Shown piece after piece: positions 12,404-35,840 of a stretch of 49,101 nt of DNA; within the stretch, counting starts at the first letter, position 1, and the number at the start of each line of letters is the position of its first letter. Below the pieces are notes generated by a model. The model was not told the DNA's origin. It was given only the letters and a program-made list of their open reading frames with translations, and did no database searches. The DNA is from a virus: the UHGV virus genome UHGV-0209788, one strand, 5' to 3'. The translations under genes and the position numbers were made by a program.

Positions 12404-13317
12404 TTTCGTCCCTTCAGCACATAACGAGGTCTGTTTTTCACTTCCACGTAAATCCTTCCGATATACTCACCAAGAACTCCAATCCCAATCAACTGTATGC
12501 CTCCAAGAAAAAGGATAGACACAAGCAATGATGGATAGCCGCGAACTGCATTACCAAAGGCGAGGGTATCTATAATCATCCATGCACCATACAAAAACGC
12601 AGCACCGGCAACTAACAGGCCGATGTACGTCCACATGCGAAGCGGGAAAGTAGAGAAGCTGGTAATCCCCTCTAGGGCAAGGTTCCACAGTTTCCAGCCA
12701 TTAAATTTCGTGCTCCCGGCCACTCGCTCGGCCCTGGTATACTCAACAACATCGGTTCGCCCGCCAACCCAGCTCAGCACACCCTTCATGAACAGATTGC
12801 GTTCTGGCATTAGCTTAATGTTTTCCACTACCTCGCGAGACATCAGACGGAAGTCGCCAACGTTTTCTTCGATCTTTGGATTGCTGATTTTGTTGTGCAG
12901 CTTATAGAACCACTCAGCGGTCTTTCGTTTCAGGCGCCCGTCCGTAGAGCGGTCTGATCGCTTAGCCAGAACCATATCGGCCCCAGCCTGCCATTTCTCT
13001 ATCAGGTGCGGAATGACTTCGATAGGGTCCTGCAAGTCAACGTCAATAGGGATAATTGCTTCACCGGTGGCGTGATCAAGACCAGCGAAAAGAGCTGGCT
13101 CTTTACCAAAGTTGCGAGTGAACGACAGTGGAACCACAAGCGGATCGGCAACAGCAAGCGCGTTGATAATTGATTCTGTAGCGTCTTTGCTGCCGTCATT
13201 GATGAAGACTATCTCTACTTCATGCTGCTGAAGCCCTTCAAATTCCCGAACCGTTTTATAAAAAATAGGTATCGCGTCTTCTTCGTTGAAGACGGGAACG
13301 ACCAGAGAAATTTTCAT
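12400..13317 (-). CDS. gtrB: Bactoprenol glucosyltransferase (GT2)
   Basis: [13 protein letters not shown]...[10 protein letters not shown]2 signature plus C-terminal TM helices. Near-identical to the recalled P22 GtrB. Confidence 0.9.
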
Positions 13318-13676
13318 TTCGCATCCCTAAAGACAATGAACTTTGAATAAATAAAACCGCACACCAGACTGATGGCGGAGAAAAGAATGAGAGTCACGAT
13401 CGGAGCCATGCCAGACTTATCAGCGCACCATCCAACAGCGGCGCTAAGCGTCCCCATAAAGCCAACGTAGAGCATGTAGCGCATGGTGGTAGTCGAGGAC
13501 TTAAACGTGAACCTGGCGTTTGCAAAGAAGCTGAAAGACACTGCCACGACAAACCCGGCAAAGTTGCCAAGCGCCTGTCCTGTATGAAATGCGTAGATGC
13601 AAACAGCGAACACGACCCAGTGGATGAGCGTATTGATAACACCTATAGATGTGTACTTGGCGAATAACTTTAACAT
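13314..13676 (-). CDS. gtrA: GtrA flippase family membrane protein
   Basis: 120 aa with 4 TM helices and the GtrA-like motif. First gene of the cassette. Confidence 0.85.
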
Positions 13677-13730
13677 TATAGAAATCAGTGAATTCGGAAA
13701 GGTCTGAAGTGTAGCACCACAAACGCTATT

Positions 13731-13747
13731 GATCGATACCGCCGATC
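13731..13747. promoter_or_regulatory. Pair of GATC (Dam) sites in direct repeats GATCGATA...GATCGATA in the gtr/umuD' divergent control region
   Basis: GATC at 13731 and 13744, 13 bp apart, upstream of gtrA. gtr operons of P22-like phages are known to be phase-variable via Dam/OxyR. Confidence 0.35.
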
Positions 13748-13752
13748 GATAA

Positions 13753-13772
13753 TACTGTATGCATATACAGTA
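13753..13772. promoter_or_regulatory. LexA (SOS) box
   Basis: TACTGTATGCATATACAGTA, a CTGT-N8-ACAG palindrome matching the consensus TACTGTATATATATACAGTA at 18/20. It lies 17 bp upstream of the umuD'-like start and overlaps its likely -10 region. Confidence 0.75.
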
Positions 13773-13788
13773 ACTATCGGAGGTGAGT

Positions 13789-14178
13789 ATGGGATTCCCG
13801 AGCCCCGCTGCTGATTACGTTGAATCGCGCCTGTCACTTGATGAGGCGCTTATCCAGAAACCAGCCGCTACGTACTACATGCGCGCGGGTGAGACTATCT
13901 ACCGCTGCGGCATCATGAAGGATGCGCTGTTGGTCATCGATTCGTCACTTAAGCCATGTGACGGCTCGCTGCTTATCTGTGACTGCAACGGTGAGTTTAA
14001 AGTAAAGAGGTATCGAACATATCCGCAGCCGCATCTTGAGAATGTGGCGAACGGGAGAAAGGAGAGGCTGCCTGGTAACGACGAGGGTATCAGCGGAGCG
14101 CTACCAATATTTGGAGTCATCACGTACATCATCAACGATGCGCGTTCTGGTGAGTTTGATGACTGCCCGGTGATGTGA
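13789..14178 (+). CDS. UmuD'-like protein (S24 peptidase fold, begins at the UmuD cleavage site)
   Basis: MGFPSPAADYVESR aligns with E. coli UmuD G25-FPSPAADYVEQR. The catalytic Lys is conserved (FKVKR) and the GDSM Ser aligns to Thr (GETI). GGAGG RBS present. Confidence 0.8.
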   Translation: MGFPSPAADYVESRLSLDEALIQKPAATYYMRAGETIYRCGIMKDALLVIDSSLKPCDGSLLICDCNGEFKVKRYRTYPQPHLENVANGRKERLPGNDEGISGALPIFGVITYIINDARSGEFDDCPVM

Positions 14179-14350
14179 TGAGGAAAAGGCATAGCTATGC
14201 CAGGGGCATGGCTGTGCACTCTCTGTGTCACAGATGTGTCATGCATGGATGAGTCGTAACGAAACGCAGAAGCATATAACGACACGTAATGACACAAGTC
14301 CGGTGCGAGCGCGGAAAAACTAATGACTTTACAGTGTGTTAAATGATACT

Positions 14351-14402
14351 CTACGTTCTTCTAAGCCGTAGGTCGTAGGTTCGAATCCTACAGGGCGTGC
14401 CA
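14351..14402 (+). other. attP core: 3' ~50 nt of a tRNA-Arg(UCU) gene (anticodon loop to CCA)
   Basis: CTTCTAAG anticodon loop, then GGTTCGAATCC T-loop, acceptor 3' strand and GCCA. Aligns with the argU 3' half. Sits immediately 3' of int. Confidence 0.75.
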
Positions 14403-14417
14403 TTTAAAAACAGGCGC

Positions 14418-15581
14418 TTACGCCAGTTTCAAGCCAGCCTGATTTTCTCCTTGTGTCGTATTTGTGTCATGGTTGCCAAAAATGGCATCAATTTTCCGTG
14501 CGTGTTCGCTTAAGTGGTTCGGTGCCAGGTGAGCGTATCGACGGACCATTTCGATGGACTCCCAGCCGCCCATTTCTTGCAGAACGGACAACGGCACGCC
14601 GGACTGAATTAACCAGCTCGCCCAGGTATGCCGGAGGTCGTGAAAACGGAAGTCCTCTATACCCGCTCTTTCCAGTCCAATGCGCCAGGCGACATTGTCA
14701 TCCACTCGCATTTTTCGGACAGCCGGAGTGACGGTTTTATCCGGACGCGTAGATGGCTTCGTATGAACGAATACCCACCTGGAACTTTTCCCGATCTGAT
14801 CCCTTAACACCCTGCATGCGGTATCATTCAGAGCTACGCCGATAGCCTTGCCCGCCTTCGCGTTCTCCGGATTTACCCATGCAACCTTTCTCTGCATATC
14901 GACCTGCTGCCACTCCAGGTCAATGATGTTGGAGCGGCGCAGGCCGGTTGCCAGTGCAAATATCACCACCGGCTTTATCGACTCCGGCATGCAGGCAATT
15001 AACCTTTCTGCCTCGTCCCTGGTCAGCCATCGGATGCGTTTGCTGATCGGCTTTTTGGTTTTTATAACCGGGGCCGTTTTAATCCAGCCCCAGTCATTTG
15101 CCGCAGCCTTGAACAGAGATCGCATGAACGAAAGGTGCTGGCTCTTTGTGGCCTGGCTTACCGGCTTCTCAACATACGGAGGCGGTTCCTTCCCCCGTCG
15201 TATAGCCGCGTCCCGGCGCGACTCCCAGACCTGAATATGCTTACGGTTGACCATCTTCGAAACAGCCTCATGAACCTGATCAGCCGTGATGGTTGAAATA
15301 TCCCGGCCGGAGAAATGCCGCAGGAAATATTCGATTTTGGTCTTATCGTCATCGAGTGACCGCTTATGCTCCTTCTCGCGGATCCACCTGATGCAACATT
15401 CCTCAAACGTCCTCGTCGGTAGTTCCCCAATTTTATCAACCCGCCACGCTTCAGCCTTCAGCTTGTCGTGCAGCTCCTGCGCTTGTTTCTTGTCCCCCGT
15501 ACCAAGAGATCGTCTAATTCTTTTCCCTGACGGCGTAACGAAATGACAGTGCCAGACGCCGCCTCTGAGGGTGATTGACAT
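14418..15581 (-). CDS. int: Tyrosine integrase
   Basis: 387 aa with the C-terminal R...HxLRHT...Y catalytic signature ([11 protein letters not shown]...RRYAHL). Adjacent to the tRNA-fragment att site. Confidence 0.95.
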
Positions 15582-24872: not shown

Positions 24873-25820
24873 TTATTTGAAGACTCTCTCAAGAGCGCTT
24901 TCATATTGTTCTTTTGTTTCGCACATGGATGCCATGCCGATAATTTTGCCAATGTGTCTACGTAGTGCTTTCACGCCCACATCAGAAAGGAACATATGGA
25001 TTTTGTCACCTCTCTTACCGTTTTCCTCGCGATTTTCCTTGGCGATATCGAGAATCTTGCCTTCGCTCTTTGCTAATGTTTCGTAGATATGCCTCTCAGT
25101 AAACCAGCGGAAATTTCCTGGATGTCCGCCTTTTTCTGGTTTTTTCAGTTCGTATAGTCGGTACCATTCATAGTAAAGCTCATCAGGGAATTCTTTTTCC
25201 CAAGCACGAGCTTCTTCTCGAACGTACATTTTGAAAGCTTCGATTACCGCCTGCGCCGCAGGCTCATAACCAGAAACGGCATATGCAACGCCGCGAATAC
25301 CAGATTTAGCAGAAGCATTCATAAGTCTTTGTGCGGCTTCTGCTGCTGCAATTCTATTAGCTGGCAAAACCCCTTTTTCTTTCGCCTTGACTAGGAGCTT
25401 TGCTATGTCTATTACTACACCGATGTCAAATCCATGCGCAATTGTCGAATTATTGGATCGCGCCTCTAATTGAAATTTAAGGGGTTTTTCTAATTTATCC
25501 TCTAAATCTGGATCGCGCATCTCGCTCATGAATGGAGCCGACATTAGTCTGTCTATATCGCGAGCAAGAGAGCCTATCTGGAGAAGTTGAGCTAATCCGG
25601 TCTTGGTTACAACTGGTGTTTTCAACTCATCGTTTAAAACATAACACTCGGCATCAATCCCAAACTGCTCTTTGAAATTTCCCATGTGAGTGGCTTTATA
25701 ACCCCAGCGGGCAATAGCTCCGCTCTTGGCTTGATCACTTCTTTGTTTTGCAGTGAGGGATTTAGCTCTAGCAACCCCGCCTTTTGCTTTTCCAGTTGGT
25801 TCTTTTTTATTTTCTGACAT
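24873..25820 (-). CDS. Unknown-function cargo protein in the cI-pL (rexAB-equivalent) slot
   Basis: 315 aa from ATG 25820. AT-rich, with its own promoter, and isolated by terminators on both sides. Basic N-terminus ...GGVARAKSLTAKQRSDQAKSGAIARWG. No catalytic motif recognised. Confidence 0.6.
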   Translation of the reverse strand: MSENKKEPTGKAKGGVARAKSLTAKQRSDQAKSGAIARWGYKATHMGNFKEQFGIDAECYVLNDELKTPVVTKTGLAQLLQIGSLARDIDRLMSAPFMSEMRDPDLEDKLEKPLKFQLEARSNNSTIAHGFDIGVVIDIAKLLVKAKEKGVLPANRIAAAEAAQRLMNASAKSGIRGVAYAVSGYEPAAQAVIEAFKMYVREEARAWEKEFPDELYYEWYRLYELKKPEKGGHPGNFRWFTERHIYETLAKSEGKILDIAKENREENGKRGDKIHMFLSDVGVKALRRHIGKIIGMASMCETKEQYESALERVFK

Positions 25821-25852
25821 TGTAAGCACTCTTGCTGTGAAATGTGCTTGCA

Positions 25853-25881
25853 TCATAATCACTGTGTAACCATACAAGCAA
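25853..25881 (-). promoter_or_regulatory. Sigma70-like promoter for the cargo gene
   Basis: Minus strand: -35 TTGCTT, 17-nt spacer, -10 TTATGA. An A/T-rich tract lies upstream. ATG about 26 nt downstream. Confidence 0.5.
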
Positions 25882-25958: not shown

Positions 25959-26600
25959 TCAAACCAGCCGCATCTTCGTCTCTACAGCAACACCGATAAT
26001 TCGACAGTTACCATTCACCGCTACCAATGGCCACTGTGGATTTAAACCCTTCAGGTACTTCTGCGCACCGTCGATCACTAACTTCTTAAATGTTGCCTCG
26101 TTCGAATCGGATAGCTTTGCTATTACCAGACTGCCGTTGATTGCCTCGCGCCCAGTATCGAAGAGGACAAAGGTTCCTTCTGGGATGCTAAGACCCACCG
26201 GTGCTGTCATTGAGTCACCATCAACCTGCAGCCAGAACGCCTCCCCCTGAATGTGAGCATCTGATTCAAGCCAAAGGTCGATATCTTTAAGGGTGTACGG
26301 CTCAACAGCTTCGCACCATGCTCCTGCCTGCACCTTGCTTATAACTGGGTATTTATCACCTGGCTTGTAAGGGCCTTTGTAGTCATCGCCAAAAAGCAGC
26401 TCGGCAGGCGCAACCCCCAGCGCCTTAGCTATTACAGTTGCATCATCAACGCTAACGCTCCTGGTGCCTGATTCGTAATTCCCTATGCGTGACTGCGAGG
26501 CCCACCCGCAAAGCTCTGCGAGAGCCTTTTGTGACAGCCCTTTATCTTCGCGAAGTCGCTTAATGCGGCCCGCTATATCTTCGATTCTATTCATTCTCAT
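25959..26600 (-). CDS. cI: CI-type prophage repressor (HTH_XRE plus S24 LexA-like peptidase)
   Basis: N-terminal HTH (LSQKALAELCGWASQSRIGNYESG). C-terminal S24 domain with GDSM serine and conserved Lys (ATFKKL). The start codon is essentially leaderless relative to the OR region, as for lambda pRM. Confidence 0.9.
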   Translation of the reverse strand: MRMNRIEDIAGRIKRLREDKGLSQKALAELCGWASQSRIGNYESGTRSVSVDDATVIAKALGVAPAELLFGDDYKGPYKPGDKYPVISKVQAGAWCEAVEPYTLKDIDLWLESDAHIQGEAFWLQVDGDSMTAPVGLSIPEGTFVLFDTGREAINGSLVIAKLSDSNEATFKKLVIDGAQKYLKGLNPQWPLVAVNGNCRIIGVAVETKMRLV

Positions 26601-26919: not shown

Positions 26920-26949
26920 TTGGCGGCCCTAACCACGAAAGGGAAAGCA

Positions 26950-27495
26950 ATGCATTCACTTGCGTATCAACAAGGTAACAAATTTTCGCCAACGGCGATG
27001 ATTTACCAGAATCGCCGGGAGCCTGATTCCTCGGTGTTAAATATCGATGGGATCCGTGCAGCTGTTCGCGCCTGGGCAGCTGATTGCCGCAGTCGTGAAT
27101 TTGTCGCAGCGCTGATTGTTGAGGAGTGGCGAGCCACTGGCGGCACCGGTCTGGATATCCCCGCCGACTCGCACCGCCAGATGCAGAAGGTGTTCCGCTG
27201 GATTGATGGCGACACCGAATACGCCGCCAACAACATTCGCCAGCTGGCCCCGGCAATCATGGCCGTCCTGCCGCTGGAGTATCGAAACCGCCTGGCGCCA
27301 CAGAACGACACGATGTCGCTGATCGCATCCGCAATGAAAGAGTGTGCCGAAGCAAAGCAGGCCGTGCTGCTGGACGCTCCAGAGCATCAGAAGCTGAAAG
27401 AGGTAAGCGAGGGCATAGCGTCGCTGTTCCGCCTCATGCCGGAGCAGGTAGGGCCGTTGATGACTATGGTCACTTCGATGCTGGGGGTTATGTGA
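26950..27495 (+). CDS. CII-like regulator (YdaT/CP76-like by position and size)
   Basis: Immediately follows cro. About 180 aa. Start at ATG 26950, since the track ORF begins with TTG. Family assignment by synteny only. Confidence 0.45.
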   Translation: MHSLAYQQGNKFSPTAMIYQNRREPDSSVLNIDGIRAAVRAWAADCRSREFVAALIVEEWRATGGTGLDIPADSHRQMQKVFRWIDGDTEYAANNIRQLAPAIMAVLPLEYRNRLAPQNDTMSLIASAMKECAEAKQAVLLDAPEHQKLKEVSEGIASLFRLMPEQVGPLMTMVTSMLGVM

Positions 27496-27580
27496 GAACT
27501 ACAGAAATGGCGAAAGCCGCTCTGCGCGAACAGAACCGACTTTCTGGTGGAATTAATTGGATCAATTCACAGAGGCAATT

Positions 27581-28273
27581 ATGCATCTCGAGCCATTAAC
27601 AAAGCAAGTCGGCGTATTGAAGACTATGGATGTTCCAGCCGACTTCAGAATGGAAGGGTGGGTATACGTGTTAAGCAATCCATGTATGCCTGGCATCTAC
27701 AAAATTGGAATGACCACAACAAGCCCGGAAGTTCGAGCGCGAGAACTTTCATCAGCTACTGGTGTTCCTGCTCCATTCAAGGTTGAAGCGGCTTTCTACA
27801 GCCATTCTCCGCTCGAAGCTGAAAAAGAGATTCATGATGCTTTGTCGGAGTGGAGAGTAAACGAGTCTCGCGAATTTTTTCAGCTTGATTTGAAAGAAAT
27901 TATTCATGCGTGCTCTTGCAGCTGTGAATGCCAGGTCGGTGAAAAAGCTGAATATATAGCTATTTACCACGACTTCATCATTTTTGAGAGCCTCAGCAAA
28001 ATCAATATACCTGAACTTTTTAATGAGATTGGGATTAGCGTCTTCGGCGACAAGCTTGCAGCTGCTGAGCGATTAATTCGAATCGGTGCGGAAACTATTT
28101 TCAATATCCGCAGAACAAGCGGCGTTGTTATCGCTGTGCACGATTCAAATGCGTATGCGATCGAACCGGCTGATGAACAGGCGCTAAAAGAAGCCATGAA
28201 TGAATATCAGGCTTATAGAGAAGAGCTTGATAGACGTGGAATTTACGGCCCAGAACAACCAGTGGAGTTTTAA
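27581..28273 (+). CDS. T5orf172 (GIY-YIG-like) domain protein
   Basis: EGWVYVLSNPCMPGIYKIGMTTTSPEVRARELSSATGVPAPFKVEAAF...EAEKEIHDALSEWRVNESREFF matches the T5orf172 pattern. Somewhat AT-rich insertion between the cII-like and replication genes. C-terminal ~110 aa unassigned. Confidence 0.7.
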   Translation: MHLEPLTKQVGVLKTMDVPADFRMEGWVYVLSNPCMPGIYKIGMTTTSPEVRARELSSATGVPAPFKVEAAFYSHSPLEAEKEIHDALSEWRVNESREFFQLDLKEIIHACSCSCECQVGEKAEYIAIYHDFIIFESLSKINIPELFNEIGISVFGDKLAAAERLIRIGAETIFNIRRTSGVVIAVHDSNAYAIEPADEQALKEAMNEYQAYREELDRRGIYGPEQPVEF

Positions 28274-35495: not shown

Positions 35496-35766
35496 TTCAG
35501 GTATGCTCGGACGTCAAAGGCGAAAGAGCGGAGTGGTGAGATAACAGAGGCGGTGCTCACCATTGATACCGCCTAGTTGGTAACTTCGACGGTTCGTCTG
35601 GAACTCCAACCATCGCATGCTGAGAGGTCTGCTGACACTACGGAAAGACGTGTAGGCTAGCTGAGATAAGCCGTTATGAGGACTTGGGATGCGTCAAGTC
35701 GGAGGCTCAGCCATAGAACCGCATATAAACATCAAGCCACTGGTTAACGCCGGTGGCTTTTTATTT
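35496..35766 (+). ncRNA. Late leader RNA (lambda 6S-RNA analogue, about 270 nt) with predicted stable structures
   Basis: No ORF longer than 13 codons between pR' and tR'. Interleaved stems GGTGAG/CTCACC and GGCGGT/ACCGCC (35535-35573) suggest a pseudoknot. Confidence 0.4.
35735..35766 (+). terminator. tR' terminator
   Basis: Hairpin AGCCAC...GTGGCT followed by TTTTTATTT. Confidence 0.55.
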
Positions 35767-35840
35767 GCCTGTAGCTCAGAGGAAAGAGCAACCGCCTTCT
35801 AAGCGGTTGGTAGCTGGTTCGAATCCAGCCAGGCGAGCCA
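35765..35840 (+). tRNA. tRNA-Arg (anticodon UCU)
   Basis: 76-nt cloverleaf. Acceptor TTGCCTG/CAGGCGA with one G-U pair, D-arm GCTC-AGAGGAAA-GAGC, anticodon arm ACCGC-CTTCTAA-GCGGT, T-arm GCTGG-TTCGAAT-CCAGC, discriminator G, CCA. Resembles argU. U1 is unusual. Confidence 0.8.

Follow-up and report, generated by a model that had tools for sequence, protein, structure and literature searches.

By its sequence, the gene at 13789-14178 on the plus strand of the window, the whole stretch of 49,101 nucleotides of viral DNA that was analysed, is humD, a member of the established, named and widespread family NF051876, whose founding member is HumD of phage P1. We put at about 80% the probability that it encodes a phage-borne, "born-cleaved" homologue of UmuD′ that is SOS-controlled and acts with host UmuC in a Pol V-like polymerase. 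The window itself reads as a temperate, integrating lambdoid phage of Enterobacter that carries a putatively LexA-repressed copy of humD. The gene and the features that frame it are as follows.

13779-13783, plus strand: Shine-Dalgarno sequence GGAGG, 5 nt 5′ of the ATG and invariant in the alignment with lysogen loci.
13789-14178, plus strand: humD coding sequence, 129 aa, with the S24-peptidase fold and without N-terminal arm or cleavage site.
14188-14201, no strand assigned: GC-rich hairpin GGCATAGCTATGCC directly 3′ of the humD stop codon, with a T-run on the minus strand only; a candidate terminator.

The automated list of open reading frames starts this gene at the GTG at 13783, which overlaps the ribosome-binding site. 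Because of this overlap, and because 112 of 120 homologue clusters begin MGFPSP, the ATG at 13789 was taken as the start of humD. The GGAGG that had been proposed as its ribosome-binding site does lie ahead of this ATG. N-terminal methionine is generally excised when the second residue is Gly; by this rule Met1 is removed, and the mature N-terminus of HumD should be GFPSPAADYVE, as in UmuD′.

The protein matched the NCBIfam equivalog model NF051876 ("HumD family translesion DNA polymerase") over its full length (215.8 bits, the cut-off being 120; E = 1.4e-64), its residues 1-129 covering all 129 profile positions. The Pfam search found only PF00717 (Peptidase_S24; 27.5 bits), the PHROG match was 811 ("UmuD-like protein"), and PADLOC gave no defence-system match for humD. 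In a phmmer search of the PDB, the best matches were UmuD′ (1umu_A; E = 2.7e-18) and UmuD (8gmt_B), and residue 2 of the query was placed on Gly25 of UmuD. hhalign with UmuD returned a probability of 99.7 in the same register. The profile searches thus uphold the relation to UmuD, as well as the alignment from Gly25 that the earlier note had read from the letters. The first 12 N-terminal residues exposed in UmuD′ are almost identical in the window protein. The full-length profile match and the Gly25-equivalent start, together with the upstream LexA box and the lack of umuC described below, place the protein in the HumD family. The pre-cleaved UmuD′ homologue of the earlier note is no novelty, as this family is already named and widespread.

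Two other identities were considered and rejected. The score against UmuD proper (NF007621/PRK10276) was 87.2 bits, below the cut-off of 110, and the arm, the cleavage site and umuC are missing. The name "LexA family transcriptional regulator", which databases give to near-identical proteins, does not suit a protein of 129 aa that has the S24 domain alone and no DNA-binding domain; the lexA model TIGR00498 scored 19.8 bits against a cut-off of 110.95 and covered the C-terminal domain only. An AF2 monomer model made with a 35-sequence family alignment had a mean pLDDT of 49 and a pTM of 0.41.

The window protein resembles HumD of P1/P7 in length (129 aa), in identity (63% over all 129 residues), in its start MGFPSPAADYVESR and in lacking the N-terminal arm and the cleavage site. 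P1 HumD also shares the tail SGEFDDCPV-M/I, a LexA box 16-19 nt upstream of the ATG, the absence of an adjoining umuC and membership of NF051876. The two differ in that P1 HumD has Ser (ADSH) where the window protein has Thr (GETI). They differ also in setting, since P1 humD belongs to a plasmid prophage, where it diverges from lxr and lies upstream of phd-doc, whereas humD of the window lies between gtrABC and attP. In tblastn searches of phage records, N15 gp26, phiKO2 gp23, HK639 and HK140 were 61-67% identical to the window protein. These phages and the Enterobacter phages vB_Ecl_MII_001/003 encode HumD-type proteins of 126-129 aa that, like the one in the window, have Thr for the nucleophile and end in the acidic tail, and their genes likewise have a LexA box. 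vB_Ecl_MII_001/003 are the closest in layout, with 97% identity and the same gtrA-humD-attP-int order, and humD also adjoins attP and int in HK639 and HK140. In contrast to the window, phiKO2 (L005 1181-1884) and HK140 (L002 1910-2890) have a dinI homologue that is divergent from humD or nearby, across or near the shared LexA box, and HK639 has Met in place of the catalytic Lys that the window protein keeps as Lys73. UmuD of E. coli and Enterobacter and MucA/RumA share with the window protein the S24 fold, 35-40% identity, the same post-cleavage residues and LexA operators of similar quality. Unlike it, UmuD has 24 extra N-terminal residues, a Cys/Ala-Gly cleavage site, a G-D/E-S-M...K dyad and a downstream umuC, and has no acidic tail.

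P1 HumD has been described as an already activated, shorter version of UmuD (PMC7092418), and P1 humD is LexA-regulated (PMC9603915). The title of McLenigan et al. (1999) calls HumD a functional homologue of UmuD′-like proteins that facilitates SOS mutagenesis. The central reading of the earlier note, a UmuD′-form protein that is SOS-controlled, lacks its own umuC and likely works via host UmuC, agrees by analogy with this literature on P1. The case is weakened by the window protein being only 63% identical to the tested P1 HumD and having Thr where P1 has Ser.

The region upstream of humD, the 112-bp intergenic region between gtrA and humD, contains the following features.

13729-13734, plus strand: candidate −35 element TTGATC for humD, read by eye from the letters.
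13731-13747, no strand assigned: GATC-N9-GATC pair (Dam sites, with GATC at 13731 and 13744), directly upstream of the LexA box and between the divergent gtrA and humD.
13751-13756, plus strand: possible −10 partner AATACT (16-nt spacer), overlapping the LexA box.
13753-13758, plus strand: possible −10 partner TACTGT (18-nt spacer), also overlapping the LexA box.
13753-13772, no strand assigned: LexA operator (SOS box) TACTGTATGCATATACAGTA, predicted from a sequence match, with like-placed sites annotated in phiKO2 and P1.

The predicted operator, a CTG-N10-CAG palindrome, departs from the 20-mer LexA consensus at two central positions. No other site in the window has 3 or fewer mismatches, no such site arose in any of 100 shuffled sequences, and the next best of the 22 CTG-N10-CAG sites in the window has 7 mismatches. 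The near-consensus LexA box claimed earlier is therefore well founded. Its position close upstream of the gene also holds, while the distance of 17 bp that had been given is off by one at most, with 16 nt between the box and the ATG. The LexA binding site annotated in the phiKO2 record is identical in sequence to the box of the window, and in the P1 record a site labelled "LexA binding site in the regulatory region of lxr and humD" ends 19 nt before the humD ATG. The umuDC operators of E. coli and E. hormaechei TACTGTATATAAAAACAGTA are of a quality similar to that of the window box. A consensus promoter scan of 13600-14450 gave no sigma-70 site at threshold.

The upstream regions of 80 related IMG/VR loci, 72 of them distinct, were then searched for the box over 600 nt, with up to 4 mismatches allowed. 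It was present in 71 of the 72, and lay within 50 nt of the ATG in 42 of these 71. In 29 of the 72 regions a small ORF separates it from humD, as is the case in HK140. At these HK140-type loci, the ORF between operator and humD encodes ca. 79 aa and overlaps the humD start codon; the window has no such ORF. In one Enterobacter lysogen with a P22-like prophage (L012 7970-8000), the operator is degraded, reading CTG...AAG for CTG...CAG, and the HumD protein is identical; this allele may have escaped LexA control.

The two GATC sites of the Dam-site pair TTGATCGATACCGCCGATCGATAA are 13 bp apart. The pair occurs at a fixed position in 16 of the 80 related loci and at another offset in a 17th, the bases between the two sites vary, and the pair is also kept in lysogens with different neighbouring cargo. 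This pattern suggests methylation-dependent control of gtr and/or humD.

Searching the whole 49-kb window with E. coli UmuC by tblastn gave a best E-value of 2.4, so that the earlier remark that no umuC follows the gene can be extended to the entire window. Genes that adjoin humD in other phages (dinI, P1 lxr and HK140 gp27) were also looked for in the window and were not found. umuDC is present on Enterobacter chromosomes, and the UmuC encoded there shares 83-85% identity with that of E. coli. The single E. hormaechei UmuD that was inspected combines a Cys/Gly cleavage site with GDSM and the Lys, its gene has a LexA box of its own, and the protein is 40% identical to the phage HumD. The chromosome of E. 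hormaechei B56 has three umuC copies (L121, L125 and L142), with 84-85% identity to E. coli UmuC in each case, so that HumD could find several alternative partners in such a lysogen.

The surroundings of humD, and the phage repressor, were assigned as follows.

13314-13676, minus strand: gtrA, the upstream neighbour of humD.
14224-14405, no strand assigned: attP region, with repeats and a tRNA-Arg fragment.
14224-14296, no strand assigned: three TGTGTCA(C/T) repeats (at 14224, at 14235 and, inverted, at 14289), probably candidate arm sites for the integrase.
about 14358-14405, no strand assigned: tRNA-Arg 3′ fragment, a 48-nt match to tRNA-Arg genes, probably the attP core.
14418-15581, minus strand: int, beyond the attP core.
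25959-26600, minus strand: CI-type repressor, HTH_3 and Peptidase_S24.

The homology with lysogens ends just past the tRNA-Arg fragment. The position just inside attP and beside the gtr cassette, as noted earlier from the sequence, was thus confirmed, humD lying between gtrA and the core, with int following. In the lysogens examined, humD is the last prophage gene before host DNA, and beside it lies LPS-modification cargo of one type or another: gtrABC, an acyltransferase or a Polysacc_synt gene. A complete phage tRNA-Arg gene (anticodon tct) was found at 35765-35840, separate from the attP fragment. Near CI, ORFs match P63C (24873-25877), YdaT_toxin (26920-27495) and T5orf172 (27557-28273).

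To judge whether humD is maintained, its alleles were compared. dN/dS against the window allele was 0.02-0.15 across relatives (27 comparisons with unsaturated synonymous sites), indicating strong purifying selection. Lysogen alleles that differ by 19-28 nucleotides encode an identical HumD protein; because the look-up that retrieved them required an exact protein match and was thus conditioned on identity, dN/dS was added as the unconditioned test. Across the HumD family, 38 columns are invariant. Purifying selection argues that humD is functional. The exact 129-aa protein is present in 248 blocks of the assembly collection, 516 clusters were counted at 90% identity, and clinical genomes of Enterobacter, Citrobacter and E. 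coli very commonly contain the humD cassette. N15, phiKO2, HK639, HK140 and hundreds of prophages carry relatives, which are usually placed last and adjoin attP. In Salmonella phage BTP1 (L007 2001-2390), humD has become a pseudogene, interrupted by an in-frame stop near codon 29 and, further on, by a frameshift. The LexA box and the GATC pair are retained there, and the record annotates an antisense "hypothetical protein" over it. Since humD is dispensable for lytic growth of P1 (CRISPRi; PMC10695390) and has decayed in BTP1, the benefit of HumD appears to be conditional.

The two positions that correspond to the catalytic dyad of UmuD were located by phmmer, a small MAFFT alignment and hhalign.

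13894-13896, plus strand: codon of Thr36, aligned with the UmuD nucleophile Ser60.
14005-14007, plus strand: codon of Lys73, aligned with the UmuD general base Lys97.

All three alignments agree with the Ser-to-Thr change and the conserved Lys that had been described. In one large MAFFT run the one-residue gap fell elsewhere and Thr came to lie under Asp59; the register of Thr36 on Ser60 is supported because P1 HumD keeps Asp-Ser ("DS") at the same place. The change is, however, not special to this phage, a point that the earlier note missed: Thr is the majority state of the family, and P1 has Ser. Among 121 close family sequences, the nucleophile position holds Thr in 92, Ser in 25, Ala in 3 and Ile in 1, and the general-base position holds Lys in 113, Met in 5 and Arg in 3. 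Of 44 distant short (born-cleaved) relatives of 35-50% identity, only 21 retain the Lys, and the residue in place of the nucleophile varies (Ala, Gln, Asn, His, Asp, Gly and others); these nucleophile counts were read from two residues before a shifted gap, many representatives being metagenomic fragments, and are approximate. In contrast, of 79 full-length UmuD relatives from the same search, 58 have the Ser of G[DE]SM and 64 the Lys, and these relatives keep an Ala/Cys-Gly cleavage site.

The dyad thus relaxes in the short forms only. Because a born-cleaved protein needs no self-cleavage, its Ser/Lys dyad would be under relaxed constraint, hence the Thr at the nucleophile position, and Thr36 is best read as the relaxation of an unneeded self-cleavage site and not as a new catalytic feature. 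On the simplest reading, the dyad serves self-cleavage only and drifts in proteins that are synthesised in the pre-cleaved form. Such a reading agrees with the classical work of Nohmi et al. (1988; cited in PMC7092418), which identified cleavage as the step that activates the protein. Classing the protein as an active S24 peptidase of the self-cleaving LexA/UmuD/CI clan was rejected, as it has G-E-T-I and not G-x-S-M: Thr36 stands in for the Ser, and one residue is deleted. Lys73 is present. In the CI-type repressor of the phage, GDSM and FKKL are intact, so that the phage encodes two S24 proteins, CI with a canonical dyad and HumD with a relaxed one.

Full-length UmuD relatives end a few residues past the last strand. 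The HumD clade has a C-terminal extension, ...INDARSGEFDDCPVM, which the earlier note had missed.

14143-14175, plus strand: acidic C-terminal tail RSGEFDDCPVM, aa 119-129, conserved and specific to the HumD clade; UmuD lacks it.

Few parts of the protein are as conserved as this tail. Glu122, Phe123 and Asp124 are invariant, Asp125, Cys126 and Pro127 are conserved at 90% or more, and 75 of 120 clusters end in GEFDDCPVM. C-termini of the distant short relatives include ...EFDDTPF, ...FHDNLPF and ...DEFDEIPCI, and no other ORF of the window has an EFDDCPVM-like C-terminus. SSB ends in the tip motif DDDIPF (PMC5872125), and the HumD tail SGEFDDCPVM-COOH resembles this tip, DFDDDIPF-COOH. It is conceivable, if doubtful, that the tail mimics the SSB tip and was gained as the N-terminal arm of UmuD was lost, giving HumD a function beyond that of UmuD′. 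If so, the tail could dock on readers of the SSB tail (the chi subunit of the clamp loader, RecQ, ExoI or PriA); alternatively, it could alter dimer pairing with host UmuD. LexA-controlled phage humD is already known, whereas the SSB-like tail appears to be unremarked in the literature searched, in which the C-terminal tail of HumD is not mentioned.

By analogy with P1, we propose the following course of events. In an undamaged lysogen, host LexA would sit on the operator and keep humD off. After DNA damage, RecA would be activated and LexA would cleave itself, and the same signal should inactivate the CI-type repressor of the phage, because the latter has an HTH domain and an intact S24 domain. 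humD would then be transcribed, and its product would start at the very residue that RecA-mediated cleavage exposes in UmuD. HumD would dimerise and join UmuC of the Enterobacter host and RecA-ATP to form a Pol V-like translesion polymerase, skipping the slow RecA-dependent processing of UmuD.

The model of a UmuD′ mimic leaves the conserved, clade-specific tail unexplained, so that HumD may do something more or different. As a modulator and not a polymerase subunit, it would bind uncleaved UmuD (as a heterodimer), RecA filaments, the beta clamp, Pol III alpha or, via the acidic tail, SSB-interacting proteins; the UmuD2C replication checkpoint would be lifted or RecA activity tuned for phage replication, and mutagenesis would be a side effect. 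Besides the SSB-like tail, this is favoured by the position of humD beside a dinI homologue in HK140 and phiKO2, the DinI product being a modulator of RecA. P1 HumD, moreover, is reportedly poorly expressed and is said to have complemented well only from a high-copy plasmid. However, the window has no dinI, the near-identity of the 12 N-terminal residues to those of UmuD′ argues for the same partners, and the title of McLenigan et al. (1999) has P1 HumD working as a UmuD′ homologue in SOS mutagenesis. A modulator is unlikely on balance. Titration of host UmuC and interference with checkpoints, which the earlier note had offered as alternatives, gained no support from the analysis, nor did anything speak against them.

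An active protease, in which a Thr36-Lys73 dyad cleaves host UmuD, LexA or phage CI, for example, in trans, is far less probable. Ser or Thr is kept in 117 and Lys in 113 of the 121 close family members, and UmuD-like proteins are said, from work of the Woodgate laboratory, to be able to cleave intermolecularly. Yet the motif itself has been lost (G-D/E-S-M has become G-E-T-I, A-D-S-H or G-A-T-H, with a one-residue deletion), distant short relatives have diverse residues at the nucleophile and often lack the Lys, and HK639 has Met for Lys. To our knowledge, Thr is not used as the nucleophile in the characterised Ser-Lys dyad proteases of the S24 (LexA/UmuD/CI) clan. That humD is non-functional cargo, a decaying remnant beside attP, can be given hardly any credence. 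The BTP1 pseudogene, the lysogen allele with CAG changed to AAG in its LexA box and the non-essentiality of humD in P1 would fit such decay; against it stand the low dN/dS, the identical proteins from divergent alleles, the 38 invariant columns and the intact ORF, ribosome-binding site and operator of the window. We thus retain the reading of HumD as a born-cleaved UmuD′ homologue that would act with host UmuC.

As a discovery this carries little weight, being an Enterobacter lambdoid phage with a standard SOS-controlled humD cassette by attP. Two patterns across the family are of note, namely the decay of the dyad in born-cleaved forms only and the gain of a conserved acidic tail. For the host, skipping UmuD processing may let humD lysogens arrive earlier at mutagenic bypass of the Pol V type once their DNA is damaged, as on exposure to fluoroquinolones.
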